DNA of 32,000 nucleotides from Pseudodesulfovibrio piezophilus C1TLV30 (GCF_000341895.1 NC_020409.1:2280001-2312000), one strand, 5' to 3'. Numbered from the stretch's first letter, positions 1,871-29,019 are shown. The notes: generated from the letters alone by a model not told the origin. Made by a program: numbers and translations.

Positions 1871-3232
1871 ATGCGCCGCCTTTCCCATCCACATATCTGT
1901 TGGACCGACAATGACGGTCCCCGCATCCTCGGTATCAACCCATGGATAACCGACTTTGCGGCCTTCAATGTCTGGTCGCGCCCGGTGGGGCTGCTGGCCT
2001 GTCTGGATATGCTCCGAAATGCCGGGGCATCGGTTGCGCTCCTGGACTGCATGGACCGCACATGGGAAGATGTGGCATGGCCGACACCCGGTCAATATGC
2101 CACTGGCCGATATCCCAAGGAAACCCTACCGCTGCCGCCAGCCATGGCTTCCATGGAAAGACGATATTCCCGTTACGGCCTGCCGCATGATCATGTCCGG
2201 CAGGCTTTGGCCGCCCTTGACCCACCGCCGGAAGCGATCCTGGTGACGTCCATCATGACTTATTGGTATCCCGGCTCACTGCATATGCTGGACCTGGCTG
2301 CCGAATTGTGGCCCGATGTTCCCCGCCTCCTTGGCGGCACTTATGCCACTTTGTGCGCAGATCATGCCCGAATCCATGCCGATGCCGACCTGATCATGCA
2401 GGGAAGCATGGAAAAACGGACAAACTGGGACACCCTGTGGAACCTGTTGCACCGCCCCGCCCCACCTCTCCCGGACAATGCGGGATTGGGACTGGCCCTG
2501 GACCTATACAATGAGCCGAACTACGCACCTATCCTCGGTTCCCGAGGCTGCCCCTTCACCTGCGACTACTGCGCAAGTCATGCCTTGTACCCGAAATTCA
2601 CCCAGGGAGAACCGGACCGGATTTTCGCTTCCATCGCATCGGAATACGAACGAGGCGTACGGGACTTCGCTTTTTATGATGATGCCCTGCTGGTCAACCC
2701 GGATCAATGGCTCTGGCCGCTTCTGACCCGTATAACCGAAGCAGGACTGGACCTGCGACTGCATACACCCAACGCCATGCATGTCCGCAGCCTGACCCGT
2801 GATGTCTGCCATCGCCTCAAGCAAGCGGGATTGCACACAGTACGACTGGGGCTGGAAACCACGGATTTCGAGAACCGTCATGATGTGAAGCTGACCGAAC
2901 AGGAGTGGAAGGACGGCGCGAACACGCTGCTGGAAGCCGGATTCGATCTGGACGACATCGGCGTCTACATTCTCTTCGGGCTGCCGAATCAGAATCCTGC
3001 CAATGTGGAAGACGCCATCAGGCACGTCCAGGCCTTTGGCTTTCGCCCTCATCTGGCACACTACACACCCATTCCCGGCAGTCCCATGTTTCATGAAGCG
3101 GTCGCGGCAAGCCCCTACCCTCTGGAGCAGGAACCGCTCTTCCAGAACAACTCCATCTGGCCCTGCGTGCCCGGCGGATTCAACTGGGAAGATGCCCGCC
3201 GCTGGAAATCACTCCTGCACGGAACAGGATAG
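1871..3232 (+). CDS. radical SAM protein with an N-terminal B12-binding-like (Rossmann) domain
   Basis: CxxxCxxC cluster motif in GSRGCPFTCDYCAS. The downstream TIM-barrel-like segments (RLGLETTD, VYILFGLP) are typical of radical SAM enzymes. The N-terminal domain of about 200 aa resembles the cobalamin-binding domain of class B rSAM enzymes. No SPASM Cys cluster is present. Confidence 0.8.
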   Translation: MRRLSHPHICWTDNDGPRILGINPWITDFAAFNVWSRPVGLLACLDMLRNAGASVALLDCMDRTWEDVAWPTPGQYATGRYPKETLPLPPAMASMERRYSRYGLPHDHVRQALAALDPPPEAILVTSIMTYWYPGSLHMLDLAAELWPDVPRLLGGTYATLCADHARIHADADLIMQGSMEKRTNWDTLWNLLHRPAPPLPDNAGLGLALDLYNEPNYAPILGSRGCPFTCDYCASHALYPKFTQGEPDRIFASIASEYERGVRDFAFYDDALLVNPDQWLWPLLTRITEAGLDLRLHTPNAMHVRSLTRDVCHRLKQAGLHTVRLGLETTDFENRHDVKLTEQEWKDGANTLLEAGFDLDDIGVYILFGLPNQNPANVEDAIRHVQAFGFRPHLAHYTPIPGSPMFHEAVAASPYPLEQEPLFQNNSIWPCVPGGFNWEDARRWKSLLHGTG

Positions 3233-3328
3233 ACACCAACTCAGCCTGCTTCCCTGAAAAAGGAGAAAAACCGCGCAAGACGAAACCATTCTACAGACGT
3301 GTCATCAAATGCCGGAAAACCGGACGGA

Positions 3329-4093
3329 TCAGACACCCATGATATTATAGCCTGAATCGACGAAAAGCACGTCTCCCGTGGTACCGGACGACAGGTCCGA
3401 GGCAAGATAAAGGGCTGCCTTGCCCACATCGTCAATGGTGATATTGCGATGCAGGGGCGCTTTTTTCTCAATCGTGTCGAGAATGGTCGAAAAGCCCGAG
3501 ATACCTTTGGCCGCCATGGTCTTGACCGGTCCGGCCGAAATGGAATTAATCCGCACATCCCGTGCTCCCAAATCCACGGACAAATACCGAACGCACGCCT
3601 CAAGGGCCGCTTTGGCAACACCCATGGCATTGTAATTGGCTACAACCTTGCCCGCTCCATAGTAGGAAAGGGTCAGGACTGAACCGCCCGGATTGAGCAT
3701 CTGCTCGTACGCACGACATAAGGCCACCAGCGAGTAGGAAGAGACATCGAGCGCCACGCCGTAGCCTTCTCGGCTGGTATCGATGAACCGCCCCTTGAGA
3801 TCGTCTCGATTGGCATAGGCGATGGAATGGACCAGGATATCCACATCTCCCCATTGGCGACTGACCAGATCAACACCGGACTGAATATCCTGGTCGTCCG
3901 TGACATCGCACTTGAACAGGAATTCACCGCCCAGTTCCTCGCAAAGAGGGTCAAGTCGCCGCTTGATAGGCTCAGCCGCATAGCTGAAGGCGAGTCGTGC
4001 CCCGTGTTCCCTGAATTGCCGCGCTATGCCATAGGCGATGGAACGGTCATTGACCACCCCGAAAACAAGCGCTTTCTTTCCTTTCAGAAGCAT
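3329..4093 (-). CDS. fabI: enoyl-[acyl-carrier-protein] reductase (NADH), FabI
   Basis: MLLKGKKALVFGVVNDRSIAYGIA N-terminus and a YNAMGVAKAALE Tyr/Lys catalytic segment. Length is 254 aa. AAGGAG Shine-Dalgarno upstream. Confidence 0.9.
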   Translation of the reverse strand: MLLKGKKALVFGVVNDRSIAYGIARQFREHGARLAFSYAAEPIKRRLDPLCEELGGEFLFKCDVTDDQDIQSGVDLVSRQWGDVDILVHSIAYANRDDLKGRFIDTSREGYGVALDVSSYSLVALCRAYEQMLNPGGSVLTLSYYGAGKVVANYNAMGVAKAALEACVRYLSVDLGARDVRINSISAGPVKTMAAKGISGFSTILDTIEKKAPLHRNITIDDVGKAALYLASDLSSGTTGDVLFVDSGYNIMGV

Positions 4094-4211
4094 ATGATCT
4101 CCTTGTTCTCAAATGACATCGTAAAAATGCCTGACAATCGTTGCAACATCAACTGTCTTCCGCTACTCTCCCTGCCTGTAACCGACACCACCATCAGAGG
4201 GAGGCTTTATT

Positions 4212-5324
4212 ATGGCATCAAACGTTTATTTCTGGAACCTGCGTGCATCGCACAAGGCTCCGTTTCACACTCGACTGAGGAGCCTGCTCAAGGCTGCTGG
4301 TGTTGATAAAACTATTACCGAAGGCGACCTTGCCGCCATCAAGATCCACTTTGGAGAACAGGGGACCACCGGATTCCTCCGCCCCCTGTGGGTCAAGCCC
4401 ATCGCGGACTTCATCACCGAATTCGGCGGCAAGCCGTTTCTCACCGACGCATCAACCCTGTATGTCGGCCAACGGGGTGAGGCCGTTTCCCACCATCTCT
4501 GTGCAGCACGGCACGGCTGGGACCCTCTCGTGATGGGTGCTCCGGTTATCATCGCCGATGGCCTCAAGGGAAACGAAGAGGCAGCTGTTCCGGTGGGAGG
4601 CAAGCATATAAATGAAGCCTTCATCGCCAAAGGCATCGCCGACGCCGACTTTCTGGTCTCAGTCAATCACTTCAAGGGACACGAATTGGCGGGATACGGC
4701 GGGGCGCTCAAGAATCTCGGCATGGGATGTGCCAGCAAGATGGGAAAAATGCAACAGCACTTCTCCACTGGTCCAGCGGTCGATCCTGACAAATGCGCGG
4801 CCTGCGGTTCCTGTGTCAAGGTCTGCCGAACCGAAGCGCTCTACATTGATGAAGAAACCGGCGTGATCGCACTCAATGCGGAAAAATGTGTGGGCTGTGG
4901 CGGATGTTTTGTGGCCTGCCGTCACAGTGCCTTGCAGGTCAACTGGCAAATCGGCATCCAGGAATTCCTGGAGCGAATGATGGAGTACACGGTGGGCGTT
5001 CTCAAAACCAAAACAAAACCATGCCTGCATGTAAATTTTGTCATGGACGTGGTCCCGGACTGCGATTGCGTCGGATTTACCGATGCCCCCATCTGTCCGG
5101 ATATCGGTATCCTGGTCAGCTTCGACCCCGTGGCCGTGGACCAAGCATCCATGGACCTGGTGGACAATGCCCCGGCTCTGTATCCAAGCCAACTGCCCTT
5201 CGGAGTCCTGCCCGGACAGTCAAAATTCGCAGCCATTCATGAACATGTGCCCGAACACATGGGGCTGGATTACGCCGAAGCCATCGGGCTTGGCTCCAGA
5301 GAATACACCCTGATCAATCTTTAG
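4212..5324 (+). CDS. DUF362 domain protein with an inserted 2x[4Fe-4S] ferredoxin domain
   Basis: N-terminal DUF362-like region (AIKIHFGEQGTTGFLRP, HFKGHELAGYGGALKNLGMG) and two CxxCxxCxxxC motifs (CAACGSCVKVC, CVGCGGCFVAC). GGGAGG Shine-Dalgarno upstream. Confidence 0.75.
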   Translation: MASNVYFWNLRASHKAPFHTRLRSLLKAAGVDKTITEGDLAAIKIHFGEQGTTGFLRPLWVKPIADFITEFGGKPFLTDASTLYVGQRGEAVSHHLCAARHGWDPLVMGAPVIIADGLKGNEEAAVPVGGKHINEAFIAKGIADADFLVSVNHFKGHELAGYGGALKNLGMGCASKMGKMQQHFSTGPAVDPDKCAACGSCVKVCRTEALYIDEETGVIALNAEKCVGCGGCFVACRHSALQVNWQIGIQEFLERMMEYTVGVLKTKTKPCLHVNFVMDVVPDCDCVGFTDAPICPDIGILVSFDPVAVDQASMDLVDNAPALYPSQLPFGVLPGQSKFAAIHEHVPEHMGLDYAEAIGLGSREYTLINL

Positions 5325-8736: not shown

Positions 8737-9408
8737 TTAGAGGAATCCCTGCTGGTTGAGCTGCTCAATGAGGACACCGACATCATCGGCAATGAAGTTT
8801 GGTGAGAGCGGGGCAAAGACATCTGCCGCAACGGTGCCGCTTGTAACGGCCCCGGAGAGCGTGCCTGCATTGATGGCGGTCTGGATATCCATGGGATGAT
8901 CCCCCACCATCAATGTCCGAGCCGGATCGGCACCAAGACAGTCCAGGGCCTGAAAGAGGTGCACCGGATCAGGTTTGACGCGAACTGCGATTTCACGGGG
9001 AATAAAGGCTTGTGTGAGGCTTTCTATATCGGGAAAAACCTGCCGGACGGCAGCGGAAATATTCCGGGTAATGACTCCTGCCCCGATCCCCCGTTCCCGA
9101 AGCAGCGCCAGCGAAGGTCTGGTGAAATCAAAAAGAGCGCCCTGCCGGGCAGCGTCCAACTCCATGGCCGTGATGACCAGATGACCGCGAGTACGAAATT
9201 CCTTGCCCTCCGCTTCATCGCGAAGCATCACCGTCTGGACCAATTCTTCCAGCCACTCAAGGGCCGGGGTCGGGCCGGGAACAGGACGCTGGTCCATGAA
9301 CGCCTCACCAAGGGCTGCAATACGTGTCTTCATGGACTCCAGATCAAGAGGGACGTCGGCCAGCGTGCCGTCAAAGTCGAAAATGATAGCGTCAAGCCTT
9401 GTTGGCAT
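8737..9408 (-). CDS. HAD-superfamily hydrolase (phosphoglycolate-phosphatase-like)
   Basis: Motif I is IIFDFDGTLAD. It also has the later VITRN and KPDP motifs, and VGDHPMDI as motif IV. Confidence 0.75.
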   Translation of the reverse strand: MPTRLDAIIFDFDGTLADVPLDLESMKTRIAALGEAFMDQRPVPGPTPALEWLEELVQTVMLRDEAEGKEFRTRGHLVITAMELDAARQGALFDFTRPSLALLRERGIGAGVITRNISAAVRQVFPDIESLTQAFIPREIAVRVKPDPVHLFQALDCLGADPARTLMVGDHPMDIQTAINAGTLSGAVTSGTVAADVFAPLSPNFIADDVGVLIEQLNQQGFL

Positions 9409-9425
9409 GTCGTTCTTCTCCCGGA

Positions 9426-10277
9426 TCAGCCCTTGCCCGCCAGTTCTCGCAGGGTATTCAAATTACGCACGTCATCCTTGAGATCCTTTTCCTTGGGCGT
9501 CTCCAGGGTCTTGGGAATATCCGCAAAACGCTCGTCACGCATCAGATTTCGGAACCCGTCCAGCCCGATTTCGCCCTTTCCGATGTGTTCATGGCGATCC
9601 TTTCGGGAATCAAAGGCGTTCTTGGTGTCATTGACATGAAAGAAACGGAGACGGTCCAGGCCGATGATTCGATCAAAGGCCTCGAAAGTCGCGGCATAGG
9701 CTGCCGGGGTGCGAAGGTCGTACCCTGCGGCAAAGGTATGGCAGGTATCGTAACAGACTCCCAACCGATCAGCATGCGCAGAGGCTGCGATGATGGCGGC
9801 CAGCTCTTCGAAAGTGGAACCGAGGTTTGTTCCCTGTCCGGCCGTTGTCTCCAGCAGGACCAGGGCCTCATCTGTACCGGAATCCTCTATGGCACGATCC
9901 AGTGCGGCAGCATAGCGCTCGATACCCGCATAAACCCCCTCTCCCAGGTGCGAACCGGGATGGGTGACCAAAAAAGGGATTTTCAACGCTTCCACACGCT
10001 GTAATTCCTTGGCAAAACCGATACGGGACCGCTCTGCCTGCTCTTCCTTGGGAGAAGCGAGATTGATCAGATAGGAATCATGGGCTGCAAGTGGGTAGTC
10101 ACCCCACTGCTCTCGGGCCACGGCAAAAAGGTCAAGATCATACTTGGTGAGAGGCGGAATTTTCCACTGACGCTGGTTGCGTGTGAAAATCTGGAGAGCA
10201 GTGCCGTCAACGGCACGAATGTGCTCGAAGGCCATGTGCAGGCCTCCGGCAATGGACATGTGCGAACCGAGAAACAT
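9426..10277 (-). CDS. nfo: endonuclease IV (deoxyribonuclease IV)
   Basis: MFLGSHMSIAGGLHMAFEHIRAVDGTALQIFTRNQRQW aligns by eye with the E. coli Nfo N-terminus. It also has the VTHPGSH, CYDTCH and FHVND metal-ligand motifs. I chose the ATG at 10277 (GAGG Shine-Dalgarno) over the longer ORF start at 10346. Confidence 0.9.
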   Translation of the reverse strand: MFLGSHMSIAGGLHMAFEHIRAVDGTALQIFTRNQRQWKIPPLTKYDLDLFAVAREQWGDYPLAAHDSYLINLASPKEEQAERSRIGFAKELQRVEALKIPFLVTHPGSHLGEGVYAGIERYAAALDRAIEDSGTDEALVLLETTAGQGTNLGSTFEELAAIIAASAHADRLGVCYDTCHTFAAGYDLRTPAAYAATFEAFDRIIGLDRLRFFHVNDTKNAFDSRKDRHEHIGKGEIGLDGFRNLMRDERFADIPKTLETPKEKDLKDDVRNLNTLRELAGKG

Positions 10278-10418
10278 GAGTACCTCGTGAGTCTGTCGCG
10301 TGCCGATTTTCCTCGTGCCCAGAGCGACGAGGCTGCGGTGGGACAATCAATCCCGGACAATCGAATGAAGAACGCGCACGACATGATCCATGCGACGCGT
10401 TCCTTCCGACTTCGGCTG

Positions 10419-23869: not shown

Positions 23870-24119
23870 TGTTTTCTCCTTGAAAAATAAGAATCCGGCG
23901 GGCTGATACCGGGCCTGTTCATGACCAACAACGAAATCGCTCTTTGCCACAACACCCGAAAGACCGCACGGCGCGTGAGGAAACTACCCATAATCAGCCA
24001 ATGCCGCAAGTCATGGGAAGCCAAGGGAGTCCCGCATTGTACCGACCGGCAAAGTCTGGTAATTCTCAATTCGAACGCTGCCCGAAAATACTCTGGCGCA
24101 TCAAAACCTTGGACAGACG

Positions 24120-25082
24120 ATGAATATACTCATGACATCAGCCGGACGGCGCACTTCGCTTTTGCGCTTCTTTCAGGAAGCCGCCCATGCTCGCGGAGGT
24201 TCGGTCCACGCCGGGGATATGGACGGATTGGCCCCGGCGCTCTATCTGGCCGACCATGCAATCCGCCTGCCGCGTGTGACGGACACGAACTATATTCCTT
24301 TTCTACTCGACTCTGTTGAAAAACATGCTGTTTCGCTCGTGGTCCCGACCATTGATACCGAACTGACTGTTTTTGCCGAGTCCGCACCACTCTTTGCCGC
24401 CAAGGGATGCCGTCTGTTGATCTCCTCTCCCAGACTGATTTCCGCCTGCCGCGATAAATGGAACACCTCGCGGGTCTTCGGCGATCTGGGCGTGCGTGTT
24501 CCCCGCTCTTGGCTACCCGGCCAAATCGACAATGCCGACCTGCCGGAAAAGCTCTTTATCAAACCACGCGACGGCAGTGCCAGTCTCGATGCCTACCCCG
24601 TGGAGAAGAAAGACCTCTCCACCATGCTGGACCAAGTGCCAAACGCCATCATCCAGGAGCGGATCACAGGGCGTGAAATTACCATCGACGCCCTCCTCGA
24701 TTTTGACGGTCGCCCCATTCACTTTGTCCCACGCATTCGCGTCAAGACCGTGGGTGGGGAATCTGTCCAGGGCACGACCATCAAGGAACCCGGCCTCAAT
24801 GAATGGTTGGAATCCCTGCTCCGCATCATCGGTGACATGGGCGGGATCGGTCCCATGACCATGCAGGCCTTTCTCACGGATGACGAATTCGTCCTCTTCG
24901 AGATCAACCCGCGCTTCGGCGGGGGCTTTCCGCTGGGACACGCAGCAGGGGGACTATACCCGCACTGGCTGATGCAAATGGTGGCAGGGGAGCCTGTCGC
25001 CCCACGATTGGGCGAATACACCGTTGGCCTGTCCATGACCCGTTCCTATACAGAAGTTTTCACACAGGAGCCTCAGTGGTGA
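24120..25082 (+). CDS. ATP-grasp family ligase (carboxylate-amine ligase type), sugar-operon associated
   Basis: Has a pre-ATP-grasp N-terminus (MNILMTSAGRR), a KPRDGSASLD nucleotide-binding loop, and LFEINPRFGGGFPL (the EINPR-type Mg/ATP motif). It is the first gene of a four-gene tightly coupled operon. Confidence 0.75.
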   Translation: MNILMTSAGRRTSLLRFFQEAAHARGGSVHAGDMDGLAPALYLADHAIRLPRVTDTNYIPFLLDSVEKHAVSLVVPTIDTELTVFAESAPLFAAKGCRLLISSPRLISACRDKWNTSRVFGDLGVRVPRSWLPGQIDNADLPEKLFIKPRDGSASLDAYPVEKKDLSTMLDQVPNAIIQERITGREITIDALLDFDGRPIHFVPRIRVKTVGGESVQGTTIKEPGLNEWLESLLRIIGDMGGIGPMTMQAFLTDDEFVLFEINPRFGGGFPLGHAAGGLYPHWLMQMVAGEPVAPRLGEYTVGLSMTRSYTEVFTQEPQW

Positions 25083-25762
25083 TCAAGGGCGTTGTTTTTG
25101 ATATGGACGACACACTCTATCTGGAACGGGATTACGTCCGAAGCGGCTTCCAGGCCGTGGCAACCCATGTCAGCGACATGGCGGATGAATCCACTGTATT
25201 TCAGACCTTGTGGACCCTGTTTCAAGAAGGAATCCGAGGCAATACCTTCAACCTTCTGATGGAAACCATGCCCGGTCTGGCCGAAAGAACATCCATCCCG
25301 CAACTGGTTTCCATTTACCGAAACCATATACCGGATATAGCCATTCTTCCGGCCATGCGAACGCTGCTTATCGACCTGCGGAACCAAGGATTGCCCCTTG
25401 GTCTGCTCTCCGACGGTCCCCTTGCTGCCCAGCAAGCCAAGGTGGATGCTCTGGGTCTCGAAACATTGGTGGATTCCATCGTCCTGACCGATGCTTTGGG
25501 GCGCGATAAATGGAAGCCGAATCCCGCCGGATTCGAAAGACTTGCTCAAACCATGGATGTTGAACACAAATTTCTTGTTTACATCGGCGACAATCCAGTC
25601 AAAGACTTCATCGCACCCAGAACGCTCGGCTGGCGAACCATCAGGCTTCGCATGCCCGGCCAATTGCGCGAAACAGACGAACCGACCAGCGAGGCGGCAA
25701 CTCCGGACAATGTTGTTTCCACTATGGAAGCCCTCCGAACAGTGCTCCACTCCGACCATTAA
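25076..25762 (+). CDS. HAD-superfamily phosphatase/hydrolase
   Basis: Starts at a GTG that overlaps the ATP-grasp stop (GTGGTGA), with AGGAG 6 nt upstream. Motif I is VVFDMDDTLY. It also has LLSDGP and KPNP, and GDNPVKD as motif IV. Confidence 0.75.
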   Translation: MVIKGVVFDMDDTLYLERDYVRSGFQAVATHVSDMADESTVFQTLWTLFQEGIRGNTFNLLMETMPGLAERTSIPQLVSIYRNHIPDIAILPAMRTLLIDLRNQGLPLGLLSDGPLAAQQAKVDALGLETLVDSIVLTDALGRDKWKPNPAGFERLAQTMDVEHKFLVYIGDNPVKDFIAPRTLGWRTIRLRMPGQLRETDEPTSEAATPDNVVSTMEALRTVLHSDH

Positions 25763-25771
25763 CAAGGACCC

Positions 25772-26905
25772 ATGACCGTGACCAAGGACCGCATATTTCT
25801 CTCCCCACCGCACATGAGCGGCCAGGAGTTGGAGTTCATCAAAGAGGCGTTCGCATCCAATTATATCGCTCCGGTCGGCCCACAGCTGACCCGATTTGAA
25901 AAGGAATTCTGTCGTTTGACCGGATTTGCCCACTGTCTGGGCGTCTCCAGTGGGACCGCTGCCATTCACCTGGCACTCCGGTTAATGGGAGTCGGTCCCG
26001 GAGATGTGGTCATCGCCTCCACGCTGACTTTTATCGGTTCGGTGACCCCTGTGACCTTTGTGGGAGCGGATCTTCATTTCGTGGACTGTGATCCCGCCAC
26101 CTGGAACATGGACCCCGCCCTGCTCAGGGAAGCAATCAACACCGTGCATGCCTCGGGAAAACGGGTGGGAGCGGTCATCCCCACCGACTTGTACGGCCAG
26201 TGCTCGGATTATGACGCCCTACGAACCATCTGCAACAACCACCAGATTCCCTTGCTTATCGACGCAGCCGAAGCCGTGGGTGCGACATACAAGGGCAACC
26301 ATGCCGGACGCGGTGGTGATGCGGCAGTCTATTCTTTCAACGGCAACAAGATCATCACCACCAGCGGCGGCGGCATGCTTGCCAGTGACAACCTTGATTT
26401 CATTGAAGAAGCGCGCCGCCTTTCCCAGCAGGCGCGGGATGACGCCCCCCACTACGAACACACGACGATCGGATACAATTATCGCATGAGCAATGTTGCG
26501 GCCGCCATCGGCCTTGGCCAAATGACCGTGGTGGATTCTTTCGTGACCCGACTGCGCGAAATATACCGTTTTTATCAAAAGGAATTCGAATCTCTCCCCG
26601 GCTTCTCGCTCATGCCTGAAGCCGAATATGGAGAGTCCACCCATTGGCTGACCGTCATGCTGGTGGATGAAACAAGCGGCACGGACCCCGAAACCATTCG
26701 CCTTGCCCTTGAAGCCGAAAACATTGAGTCACGTCCGGTCTGGAAGCCCATGCACCTGCAACCGGTTTTCACCAACGTCCCGTGTACCGGAGGCCCGGTA
26801 AGTGAAAAATTATTTGAGCAGGGGCTTTGCCTGCCGTCGGGATCAGCCTTGACCGAAGCAGACCTCGAACGAATCGTACGGGTCATAAAGAGTGTGGCGC
26901 GATGA
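25772..26905 (+). CDS. pglE: DegT/PglE-type PLP aminotransferase (UDP-4-keto-6-deoxy-GlcNAc 4-aminotransferase-like)
   Basis: Collinear by eye with Campylobacter PglE. Matching segments are FLSPPHMSGQELEFIKEAFASNYIAPVGP, YSFNGNKIITTSGGGML (PLP lysine), YEHTTIGYNYRMSNVAAAIGLGQM, RPVWKPMHLQPVF and GLCLPSGSALT. Confidence 0.8.
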   Translation: MTVTKDRIFLSPPHMSGQELEFIKEAFASNYIAPVGPQLTRFEKEFCRLTGFAHCLGVSSGTAAIHLALRLMGVGPGDVVIASTLTFIGSVTPVTFVGADLHFVDCDPATWNMDPALLREAINTVHASGKRVGAVIPTDLYGQCSDYDALRTICNNHQIPLLIDAAEAVGATYKGNHAGRGGDAAVYSFNGNKIITTSGGGMLASDNLDFIEEARRLSQQARDDAPHYEHTTIGYNYRMSNVAAAIGLGQMTVVDSFVTRLREIYRFYQKEFESLPGFSLMPEAEYGESTHWLTVMLVDETSGTDPETIRLALEAENIESRPVWKPMHLQPVFTNVPCTGGPVSEKLFEQGLCLPSGSALTEADLERIVRVIKSVAR

Positions 26906-28770
26906 AACTGAAACCGAGTCTCCCGAATTTCAGGAATGCCAATTTCTATGTCATGTTCCTCGCAGACCTTGTCATTTTCACTCTCGCGCTTTTCATGGCG
27001 TATTCCTTTCGCTTCGACTTTGATATCCCACCGGATTTCTTTCATCAATTTACAGGATTGCTCAAGTATGTCCTGATTTTCAAATCAGTGGTTTTCGTTA
27101 CCTTCGGCCTGTACCGGGGCATGTGGCGCTATACCAGCCTGGACGACTATTGGAAAATGCTCCGGGTCACGACCCTGCAAAACCTTCTGCTGATCTCGTT
27201 TGTCGTGCTCCGCTTTTCCTTTGCAGGAGTCCCGCGCTCCATTTTCGTTATCGACTGGATACTGACTCTGGTCCTGTGCAGCGGAGTCCGTCTCTCCATC
27301 CGTGCCTTCTATGCTCAGGCTGAATCCATGACCGCTCCCAGTGCAGAACGGAAAACCATTCTCGTGGTCGGCACCGGGAGTCTGGCTGAAAAGATAGGTC
27401 GGGAACTGGTCGGCAATCCGGCCCAGTACACGCTGGTTGGTTTTCTGGATGAAGACCCTGGGAAAAGAGGAAGAACCATTCACGGAAAGCCGGTCCTCGG
27501 TAATATCGCCCTTATGAAAACCCTTGTTGAACGGGACGAGGTCGATGAGATCTTCATCGCGGTATCCCGCGCTTCCGGCGAGGAAATGCGCCTCATTGCC
27601 GAAGCTTGCAAGACCACAGGGGTTCCCTTCAAAATTCTGCCAGCCATGACGGAAATCATGGACGGTAAAGTGGGTATCAAGGCTCTGCGCGACGTCGATT
27701 ACCTTGACCTGCTAGGCCGGTCTCCGGTTACGCTTGATACAGACCGCATCCTGGCGTACCTGTCCGGTCAGACCGTCCTGGTCACCGGCTGCGGGGGGTC
27801 CATCGGGTCGGAGCTCTGTCGACAAATCGTCCGTTTCAAGCCAAGCCATATCGTGCTGGTGGATTCCAGCGAATACAATCTTTACCAGATGCAAATGGAG
27901 CTGCACCATGGCCTCGGCTTCACCGGTTACACCACAGTGCTCGGCTCGATCACCGATACCGATCTCATGACACGCACCTTTGCAGCCCACACTCCATCCA
28001 CCGTCTTCCACGCCGCGGCCTATAAGCATGTGCCCATGCTGGAACGAAATCCATGGCAGGCTGTCCGCAATAATATCCTCGGCTCGCAGACGATCATGCA
28101 TGCTGCTGTGGAAAGCGGGGTGGAGCGATTCGTGGTCGTCTCCACTGACAAGGCTGTTCGCCCCACCAATGTCATGGGTGCCTCCAAACGTGTCACTGAA
28201 CTGCTCATGCAATCCCTGCATGGCAGAGGCACTCGTTTCATGGCGGTCCGTTTCGGCAATGTCGTCGGTTCCAGCGGCTCGGTGGTGCCGTTATTCAGAC
28301 GACAAATCGAAACAGGCGGCCCGGTCACGGTCACCCATCCTGATGTCACCCGCTATTTCATGTCTATTTCAGAAGCGTCCCAACTCATTCTCCAGGCAGG
28401 AAGCATGGGGGAGACAGGGACTGGCGGAGAAATCTTTGTGCTCGACATGGGCGTCCCGGTCAAAATAGCCGACATGGCCCGTGACCTCATCAGACTCTCC
28501 GGCAAAAAACCAGATGTGGATATTCAGATAATCTTCACCGGTCTGCGGGAAGGCGAAAAGCTTTTTGAGGAACTGATTACGGAAGGAGAGGGGATTGTTC
28601 GCACCGAACATGAAAAAATCCTTGTCCTCGGAACAGATTGCTGCGCCGACCAGCAAACCCTGAGCAAAGAAGTGGATGCCCTTGTCAAAGCCTCGGAAGA
28701 CTATGATGGCACCGCCATACGCTCACTGCTCATGCGCCTTGTTCCCGAATATACCCCCTCGGACAACTAG
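26902..28770 (+). CDS. pglF: membrane-anchored UDP-GlcNAc 4,6-dehydratase (PglF/CapD/WbpM family)
   Basis: Its ATG overlaps the pglE stop (ATGA at 26902-26905). It has four N-terminal TM helices, a VLVTGCGGSIGSEL Rossmann motif, AAAYKHVP (YxxxK) and VVVSTDKAVRPTNVMGASKR. Confidence 0.85.
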   Translation: MKLKPSLPNFRNANFYVMFLADLVIFTLALFMAYSFRFDFDIPPDFFHQFTGLLKYVLIFKSVVFVTFGLYRGMWRYTSLDDYWKMLRVTTLQNLLLISFVVLRFSFAGVPRSIFVIDWILTLVLCSGVRLSIRAFYAQAESMTAPSAERKTILVVGTGSLAEKIGRELVGNPAQYTLVGFLDEDPGKRGRTIHGKPVLGNIALMKTLVERDEVDEIFIAVSRASGEEMRLIAEACKTTGVPFKILPAMTEIMDGKVGIKALRDVDYLDLLGRSPVTLDTDRILAYLSGQTVLVTGCGGSIGSELCRQIVRFKPSHIVLVDSSEYNLYQMQMELHHGLGFTGYTTVLGSITDTDLMTRTFAAHTPSTVFHAAAYKHVPMLERNPWQAVRNNILGSQTIMHAAVESGVERFVVVSTDKAVRPTNVMGASKRVTELLMQSLHGRGTRFMAVRFGNVVGSSGSVVPLFRRQIETGGPVTVTHPDVTRYFMSISEASQLILQAGSMGETGTGGEIFVLDMGVPVKIADMARDLIRLSGKKPDVDIQIIFTGLREGEKLFEELITEGEGIVRTEHEKILVLGTDCCADQQTLSKEVDALVKASEDYDGTAIRSLLMRLVPEYTPSDN

Positions 28771-28800
28771 TTGATTTTTTTGTCTAATCAACTTATTTTT
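28769..28800 (+). terminator. AT-rich intrinsic terminator closing the sugar operon
   Basis: AGTTGATT tttttgtct AATCAACT, an 8-bp stem followed by TATTTTT. It overlaps the pglF stop codon. Confidence 0.5.
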
Positions 28801-29019
28801 CATTTACAATAAAGAGGCTTTAAGGCCAACATCCCGATTTTCAAGAGGAATTCTAGACTTTTCTCGCCCACCTCATTAGGGAATATTATAGAAAAATGAA
28901 CCAACCGACTTGATTTAACTGAATTTCCCGGTTATTACTCAGGCTAACGATCGGAAAGTCTTTGCTCGCTGCTCCGCATCGAATGATATGGAAAGGCAAG
29001 AGCAGAGAAAGGAGAGACG

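Follow-up and report, generated by a model that had tools for sequence, protein, structure and literature searches.

The closest described relative of the operon considered here, four genes within a 32,000-nt stretch of the Pseudodesulfovibrio piezophilus C1TLV30 genome (GCF_000341895.1, NC_020409.1:2280001–2312000; this whole stretch is called the window, and positions are counted from its first nucleotide), is the pglB2 locus of Neisseria. In the literature, pglB2 is linked to glyceramido-acetamido-trideoxyhexose (GATDH) instead of N,N'-diacetylbacillosamine (diNAcBac) (PMC11130364, PMC6959607, PMC4569582), the GATDH product rests on genetics and mass spectrometry (PMC11130364, PMC4569582), and split pglB2 alleles are described (PMC4569582). 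The allele arrives with one extra open reading frame (ORF) (PMC11130364, PMC3338715, PMC7643975), which appears as 'ORF8' of a 'pglB2-ORF8 insertion' (PMC11130364), as a conserved hypothetical protein of unknown function directly after PglB2 (PMC3338715), and as a coding sequence that separates pglB2 from pglC (PMC7643975). In N. oralis the annotation of the pgl locus includes a HAD hydrolase (PMC6959607, S2 Fig legend). The literature searched yielded no description of the glyceroyl donor or of PglB2 chemistry, and nothing that pairs pglB2 or glyceramido with ATP-grasp. The window operon encodes a predicted ligase of the ATP-grasp type, followed by a HAD phosphatase, an aminotransferase resembling PglE and a dehydratase resembling PglF. 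It belongs, in free-standing form, to this PglB2-type pathway, known genetically from Neisseria and widespread among metagenomic sequences, and does not represent a new kind of system. The four genes are probably a self-contained module for the synthesis of a bacillosamine-type nucleotide sugar acylated at N4, in which a phospho-acid would be ligated to the sugar and then dephosphorylated by the HAD enzyme.

Three other systems offer points of comparison. In the PglF/PglE/PglD route to UDP-diNAcBac of Campylobacter jejuni the third step is carried out by PglD, a left-handed beta-helix acetyl-CoA transferase, where the window has a predicted ATP-dependent ligase plus a phosphatase instead; the dehydratase and aminotransferase of the window are, among solved structures, closest to 5BJU and 1O61/4ZTC (see below). 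In the capsule locus of the same species, Cj1435 hydrolyses the phosphate once serinol phosphate or ethanolamine phosphate has been ligated by Cj1438C (PMC11800397). The logic proposed for the window is similar (an ATP-dependent sugar amide made from a phosphorylated small partner, in C. jejuni by the C-terminal domain of Cj1438, followed by a HAD enzyme), and the two are likened by reaction logic only. The polarity is the opposite, as with Cj1438 the sugar gives the carboxylate (C6 of glucuronic acid) and the small molecule gives the amine, and Cj1438 acts on a growing polysaccharide whereas the proposed acceptor of the window enzyme is a UDP-sugar. The third system is that of Bacillus cereus, where Pyl is described as a free-standing ATP-grasp enzyme of UDP-Yelosamine synthesis that N4-acylates a UDP-4-amino-4,6-dideoxy-HexNAc, the acid being 2-oxoglutarate and the sugar the galacto-configured UDP-FucNAc4N, and a small phosphoglycosyltransferase (PGT) gene adjoins it (PMC11626204). 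The same text mentions no HAD partner, unlike the window, and Pyl is likened to the window enzyme by description only. The original prediction knew of no characterised free-standing ATP-grasp plus HAD pair in such a role; Pyl is a characterised free-standing ATP-grasp enzyme that N4-acylates a UDP-4-amino sugar, which speaks against the novelty so implied. When 2PN1, an Exiguobacterium structure discussed below, was used as search seed, no B. cereus protein occurred among the 120 matches listed (Exiguobacterium, Clostridia and others).

All four proteins of the window operon have homologues in the core pglB2 locus of Neisseria, which serves the GATDH branch of O-linked protein glycosylation, and the gene order is the same. 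A 27-kb contig of N. meningitidis carries, in succession, PglB2, a HAD protein, a 35-aa remnant, a DegT aminotransferase and a PglF-like dehydratase, and in Neisseria contigs the 3' end of pglB2 is overlapped by the HAD hydrolase gene (226–228 aa). The extra ORF beside pglB2 is thus a HAD gene. Overlap of the ATP-grasp and HAD genes is common to Neisseria and the window, as is the lack of an acetyltransferase domain. The likeness to the PglB2 ATP-grasp domain to which the original prediction had pointed extends over the full length of the window protein, residues 2–317 of which align with residues 206–523 of N. meningitidis PglB2 (33% identity, E 2e-46, end to end). The window HAD protein is 32% identical to that encoded directly 3' of pglB2 (L087:3347–4024; E 2e-24, end to end), the dehydratase 39% identical to its pgl-locus counterpart (E 9e-133, end to end), and the aminotransferase 30% identical over 256 aa. 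Unlike Neisseria, the window has its ATP-grasp enzyme encoded by a separate gene, with neither a PGT domain nor a PGT gene nearby, and the operon lies among housekeeping genes of a Desulfovibrionaceae-like host and not in a pgl island.

Free-standing ligases exist in Neisseria as well. The cluster P0135 (525 aa, 570 members) contains a sequence named by NCBI 'protein Pglb2 [Neisseria meningitidis]', P0199 being likewise so named, and the PglB2 cluster holds many N. meningitidis proteins of 333 aa that consist of ATP-grasp only (P0195–P0198), one of which, P0195, occurs on at least 1,000 contigs. These shorter proteins are consistent with the split alleles mentioned above. The novelty implied for a free-standing ATP-grasp plus HAD pair in the original prediction could not be upheld: the HAD gene adjoins pglB2 in Neisseria, free-standing PglB2 forms are common in N. 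meningitidis, and the pair recurs in many metagenomic loci.

Within the window, the four reading frames were recovered at the coordinates given in Table 1, and their tight coupling on one strand, as first described, was verified in each particular. The stop of the ATP-grasp gene and the start of the HAD gene share a 7-nt overlap (GTGGTGA), a 9-nt gap follows before the aminotransferase gene, and the latter is joined to the dehydratase gene by an ATGA overlap. For all four proteins the Pfam and NCBIfam matches are clear-cut.

Table 1. Features of the operon and its downstream end (window positions)
Feature	Position	Strand	Remarks
ATP-grasp amide ligase	24120..25082	+	320 aa; predicted N4-acyl ligase for UDP-4-amino sugar; Pfam, NCBIfam, PglB2 homology
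HAD-IA family phosphatase	25076..25762	+	228 aa, GTG start; Pfam, NCBIfam, Neisseria HAD homology
PglE-like pyridoxal phosphate-dependent UDP-4-keto-6-deoxy-HexNAc C4 aminotransferase	25772..26905	+	377 aa; DegT_DnrJ_EryC1
PglF-like UDP-GlcNAc 4,6-dehydratase	26902..28770	+	622 aa from ATG; CoA_binding_3 + Polysacc_synt_2
Weak AT-rich hairpin and U-rich tail, possible intrinsic terminator	28769..28800	+	Folding energy vs shuffles

The ATP-grasp protein matches the Pfam families PylC-like_N, ATP-grasp_3 and ATPgrasp_Ter, and it exceeds the cut-off of NCBIfam NF009405 (PRK12767.1-4; 398.7 bits against 390) over residues 1–320 of 320. The name of that model, 'carbamoyl phosphate synthase-like protein', is only a placeholder. 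NF009405 is likewise the best ATP-grasp model for the ATP-grasp domain of PglB2, at 370.9 bits, the next ATP-grasp sub-model scoring 172. A Bac_transf domain is absent from the 320-aa window protein, which is therefore not a PGT fusion of the PglB2 kind. An AlphaFold2 model (pLDDT 91.7) has 2PN1 as its nearest structure (TM 0.83–0.86), followed by PurK, biotin carboxylase and PurT, and the fold search returned no functionally characterised close neighbour past generic ATP-grasp ligases. 2PN1, an Exiguobacterium 'carbamoylphosphate synthase large subunit' from structural genomics, is also the sole solved relative by sequence (E 7.5e-34), with 26% identity to the window protein in the Foldseek alignment. 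Its gene lies within a polysaccharide cluster with Wzx, Wzy and PglF-like genes and has no HAD gene within 8 kb; to our knowledge it has no assigned function.

The family to which the ATP-grasp protein belongs is large, with 4,437 matches at E <= 1e-5, and the best 120 of these 4,437 are all at least 54% identical to it; named sources among the best 120 are Deinococcus and metagenome-assembled genomes (MAGs) labelled Actinobacteria, Verrucomicrobiae, Bacteroidota, Firmicutes and Terracidiphilus. Four residues of catalytic type, K148, E261, N263 and R265, are invariant across the family, and in every setting inspected its members are linked to sugar-nucleotide genes. This linkage and the homology to PglB2 speak against membership in a family with an unrelated substrate, such as nucleotide or peptide ligases, which the original prediction had named as a threat to the proposed role. 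Identity as a fragment of carbamoyl-phosphate synthase, or as some unrelated ligase, was rejected in view of synteny, fusions and the PglB2 homology. In public annotation the identical protein (P0001, 316 aa) seems to begin four codons later, at the second Met; homologues starting MNxLxTSAGRR favour the ATG at 24120 as the start (window 24120–24134).

The HAD protein matches Hydrolase and HAD_2 in Pfam and is above the cut-off of NCBIfam TIGR01549, with weak similarity to phosphoglycolate phosphatase and pyrimidine 5'-nucleotidases in the same collection. HAD-IA type enzymes usually act on small substrates. Motifs I–IV of the phosphatase type are all present (D9-x-D11-x-T13, K147, and D172...D177), D9, D11, K147 and D172 being invariant in 37 of 37 HAD proteins from cassettes of this kind and T13 and D177 conserved in 36 of the 37. 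To judge from these residues, the catalytic set is complete and of phosphatase type. In the same 37 proteins a cap motif, Y81-R82-x-H84-x-P86, together with Q119 and K122, is near-invariant from the window to Neisseria. As it has been kept while the accompanying ligases diverged to about 33% identity, this motif suggests that the HAD enzymes share one substrate class.

The remaining two genes had been predicted to encode PglE-like and PglF-like proteins, and domain matches and solved relatives agree with this. The aminotransferase matches DegT_DnrJ_EryC1 at 2.8e-94, and its best solved relatives are PDB 1O61 and 4ZTC (304.6 bits, residues 7–374), which we take to be C. jejuni PglE, a name that the search output does not give. 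Whether the amine has the gluco or the galacto configuration is not readable from the aminotransferase sequence. The dehydratase matches Polysacc_synt_2 at 2.2e-115 as well as CoA_binding_3, and its best solved relative (315.6 bits) is PDB 5BJU, labelled 'WlaL protein' in the search output and presumably C. jejuni PglF. Its N-terminal region is hydrophobic and looks membrane-anchored, judging from segments read from the translation.

Neither Pfam scans of the larger ORFs nor phmmer with a PglD-type query found a hexapeptide or PglD-type acetyltransferase anywhere in the window, so that both searches agree with the absence reported in the original prediction. Conservation of the four-gene arrangement in relatives, which had also been looked for, was found in Pseudodesulfovibrio, in a Desulfovibrio MAG and, colinear in its core, in Neisseria. 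Pseudodesulfovibrio sp. zrk46 (CP051216.1) has exactly the same four-gene operon with the same flanking genes, an ATP-grasp protein 77% identical to that of the window, and ATP-grasp and HAD genes that likewise overlap by 7 nt; the pair also overlaps in L002. The Desulfovibrio MAG, which was the one locus returned by a search of genome contigs with a single protein (L001), has the four-gene set plus an extra aminotransferase and a second HAD gene. The order there (L001:8833–12373) is an ArnB/PseC-like DegT gene, the ATP-grasp gene, two tandem paralogous HAD genes, and then the PglE-like and PglF-like genes.

Gene neighbours were surveyed more widely in 80 metagenomic loci reached through the family alignment and in the other loci fetched, with the window proteins and a PGT domain as phmmer queries. 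Loci whose ATP-grasp protein scored at least 280 bits were treated as ortholog-like. Of the ortholog-like loci with enough flanking DNA, 13 of 17 have a HAD gene directly downstream on the same strand; for distant loci the figure is 26 of 52. A PGT gene is immediately upstream in 9 of 13 ortholog-like and 19 of 54 distant loci, and seven of the eight ortholog-like loci with long flanks have a DegT gene no more than 8 kb away. In a neighbour-joining tree, the HAD association is found on most deep branches, including the clade of the window protein and that of PglB2.

The association extends to gene fusion. Most family members are unfused, and PGT::ATP-grasp fusions make up about 30 clusters (as judged by a profile of PGT and ATP-grasp sequences). 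ATP-grasp::HAD fusions of about 547 aa occur at L063:575–2215 and L048:8971–10614, and triple PGT::ATP-grasp::HAD fusions are represented by P0145 and P0225 (748 aa), the latter on at least 52 contigs. One protein from a source labelled as eukaryote (P0151, 876 aa) has GT2 domains added to PGT, ATP-grasp and HAD. PglD-type acetyltransferases are rare near the cassette: among 90 sources (89 loci, many of them short, and the window) there is a clear case in L089 and weak matches, near the ATP-grasp::HAD fusion, in L048 and L052. In L089 (8001–10860) the P0225 triple fusion has a DegT gene on one side and the PglD-type acetyltransferase gene on the other, and seven glycosyltransferase genes follow. 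The HAD enzyme is, beyond what the literature reached describes, a near-constant and sometimes fused partner of the ligase.

From these comparisons a pathway of four steps can be proposed. The PglF-like dehydratase would convert UDP-N-acetylglucosamine (UDP-GlcNAc) to a UDP-4-keto-6-deoxy sugar, from which the PglE-like aminotransferase would form UDP-2-acetamido-4-amino-2,4,6-trideoxyhexose; both assignments draw on strong homology to characterised enzymes, C. jejuni PglF and PglE. In the third step the ATP-grasp enzyme would activate a small carboxylic acid as acyl phosphate and transfer it to the C4 amine, replacing the acetyltransferase function of PglD or PglB. ATP-grasp enzymes work via an acyl-phosphate, and the ATP-grasp domain of PglB2 is held to act in this way in making GATDH. 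The third step is based on this general mechanism, on homology and colinearity with the pglB2 locus, and on the lack of an acetyltransferase in the window. In the fourth step, the acid having been a phosphorylated one, with 3- or 2-phosphoglycerate as the leading candidate, the HAD enzyme would strip the phosphate from the new amide. That a phospho-acid is ligated and then dephosphorylated is suggested by the pairing of HAD and ATP-grasp, and the order of events would follow, by analogy, the precedent of Cj1438 and Cj1435, in which ligation comes before dephosphorylation (PMC11800397). As the switch from diNAcBac to GATDH in Neisseria is associated with the gain of only the ATP-grasp domain and the HAD protein, central metabolism should supply the acyl donor. 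The likely product, as predicted from the sequences, would be a UDP-2-acetamido-4-acylamido-2,4,6-trideoxyhexose, and the finished UDP-sugar would pass to a PglC-type PGT encoded elsewhere in the genome. The part of the original prediction that had the operon making a 4-acylamido UDP-sugar by ATP-dependent ligation is thus largely supported by the PglB2 homology, the shared NF009405 assignment and the colinear locus, and what falls away is the novelty of the enzyme pair. A broader proposal, possible but held with less than even confidence, is that ATP-grasp plus HAD, a pair present in many genomes and in some lineages fused to the initiating PGT, serves generally to N-acylate amino sugars in two steps with hydroxy acids taken straight from glycolysis. 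Here 3-phosphoglycerate would be activated as an acyl phosphate resembling 1,3-bisphosphoglycerate and transferred to the sugar amine, and the HAD enzyme would then dephosphorylate the product.

A number of observations weigh against the proposed pathway or narrow it. Identities between the window proteins and those of Neisseria are only 30–39%, and the window ATP-grasp protein and PglB2 fall on different clades of the family tree, so that the acid used by the window enzyme may differ. Nothing in the sequences appears to identify that acid. When HAD-associated and HAD-less ATP-grasp proteins were compared, no group-specific basic residue for phosphate was found, and the conserved core was common to both. 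One large derived ATP-grasp clade lacks HAD and PGT neighbours, though it is still found among sugar genes; members of this clade and those of the 2PN1 type indicate that a HAD partner is not required by the fold. One representative of the clade (L085:3831–12634) is flanked by a divergent DegT gene and by genes for a NusG-like protein, a UDP-sugar dehydrogenase, an epimerase/dehydratase and a PMT/TMEM260-like glycosyltransferase, a setting that suggests a different sugar amide chemistry. The triple fusion beside a PglD-type acetyltransferase in L089 makes replacement of PglD a common pattern and not a rule. Pfam scans of the larger ORFs found no PGT, glycosyltransferase or oligosaccharyltransferase in the window, and the literature searched held no report on the biochemistry of the PglB2 ATP-grasp domain or of its HAD partner. 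Lastly, the one Desulfovibrio N-glycan linkage described in the literature consulted is GlcNAc-Asn (PMC12229607).

The same pathway could run in another order, the HAD enzyme first freeing the acid from phosphoglycerate or another phospho-acid and the ATP-grasp enzyme then ligating it to the C4 amine. This would also explain the co-inheritance of the two enzymes, and it would suit a HAD-IA type by NCBIfam, such enzymes generally taking small substrates, with its weak similarity to small-molecule phosphatases (phosphoglycolate phosphatase and the pyrimidine 5'-nucleotidases). It is nevertheless considered unlikely, as the fusion of HAD to ATP-grasp and a membrane PGT fits a channelled, sugar-linked intermediate better than a diffusible acid, and the only proven analogue dephosphorylates after ligation (PMC11800397). 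Alternatively, an unphosphorylated acid (an amino acid, or 2-oxoglutarate as in Pyl) might be ligated to the same UDP-4-amino sugar, with the HAD enzyme serving another sugar or intermediate. The window clade, on a separate branch from PglB2 and about 33% identical to it, and the presence of HAD-less family members in glycan clusters leave room for such a change, and the B. cereus enzyme adds 2-oxoglutarate to UDP-FucNAc4N without a phosphatase, as far as described (PMC11626204). This explanation is likewise considered unlikely in view of the tight coupling of the HAD and ATP-grasp genes (the 7-nt overlap in the window and in Pseudodesulfovibrio, and the overlaps in Neisseria and L002), the existence of ATP-grasp::HAD fusions, and the cap motif kept across clades, which favours one pathway-specific substrate class. 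The two proteins might instead be a ligase for peptides or nucleotides and a housekeeping phosphatase, with no tie to the sugar genes beyond a common operon. This would fit the source annotation 'carbamoyl phosphate synthase-like' and the structural neighbours past 2PN1 (PurK, biotin carboxylase and PurT), but it is highly improbable given a full-length PglB2 homologue, a linkage to PGT, DegT and PglF-like genes that recurs across phyla and includes PGT fusions, and the location of even HAD-less clades in glycan clusters. Ligation of a phospho-acid followed by dephosphorylation is therefore the preferred explanation of the operon.

The operon is bordered by fabD/aroE/PPIase-type genes on one side and HIT/HU/SPOR-type genes on the other. 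A gap at 23951–24119 separates the start of the ATP-grasp gene from a divergent fabD-like gene, and a promoter scan of this 170-nt region found no sigma-70-like promoter upstream of 24120. Beyond the stop of the operon about 250 nt (window 28771–29019), without a plus-strand ORF of at least 60 aa, precede the gene of the HIT-family protein. A hairpin had been described as closing the operon, and one is indeed present past the stop, with an 8-bp AT-rich stem at about 28769–28793 and a U-rich tail, but it is weak (-6.3 kcal/mol, z = -2.18; 3 of 200 shuffles fold equally well) and was not reported by a consensus terminator scan, which needs three G-C pairs. Elsewhere in the window, and distant from the operon, a second HAD-family hydrolase (223 aa) adjoins a xylose-isomerase-like TIM-barrel protein on the minus strand (8740–10346). 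The region 1871–5324, with no apparent link to the operon, encodes a B12-binding radical SAM protein (453 aa), an enoyl-ACP-reductase-like short-chain dehydrogenase/reductase and a DUF362 protein with 4Fe-4S motifs.

Pilin and general O-glycans of Neisseria that have GATDH as their base in place of diNAcBac affect immune recognition, and the 'conserved hypothetical' gene beside pglB2 is here identified as that of a conserved HAD phosphatase, coupled to ATP-grasp across many phyla. Annotators are cautioned that the label 'carbamoyl phosphate synthase-like' is carried by many PRK12767-family proteins whose function appears to be that of sugar amide ligases. Since the free-standing enzymes of the window are soluble, the idea of ligation and dephosphorylation is open to simple assay. 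If true, phosphoglycerate ligation followed by action of the HAD enzyme would explain the synthesis of GATDH by PglB2 and would give the neighbouring gene a function.

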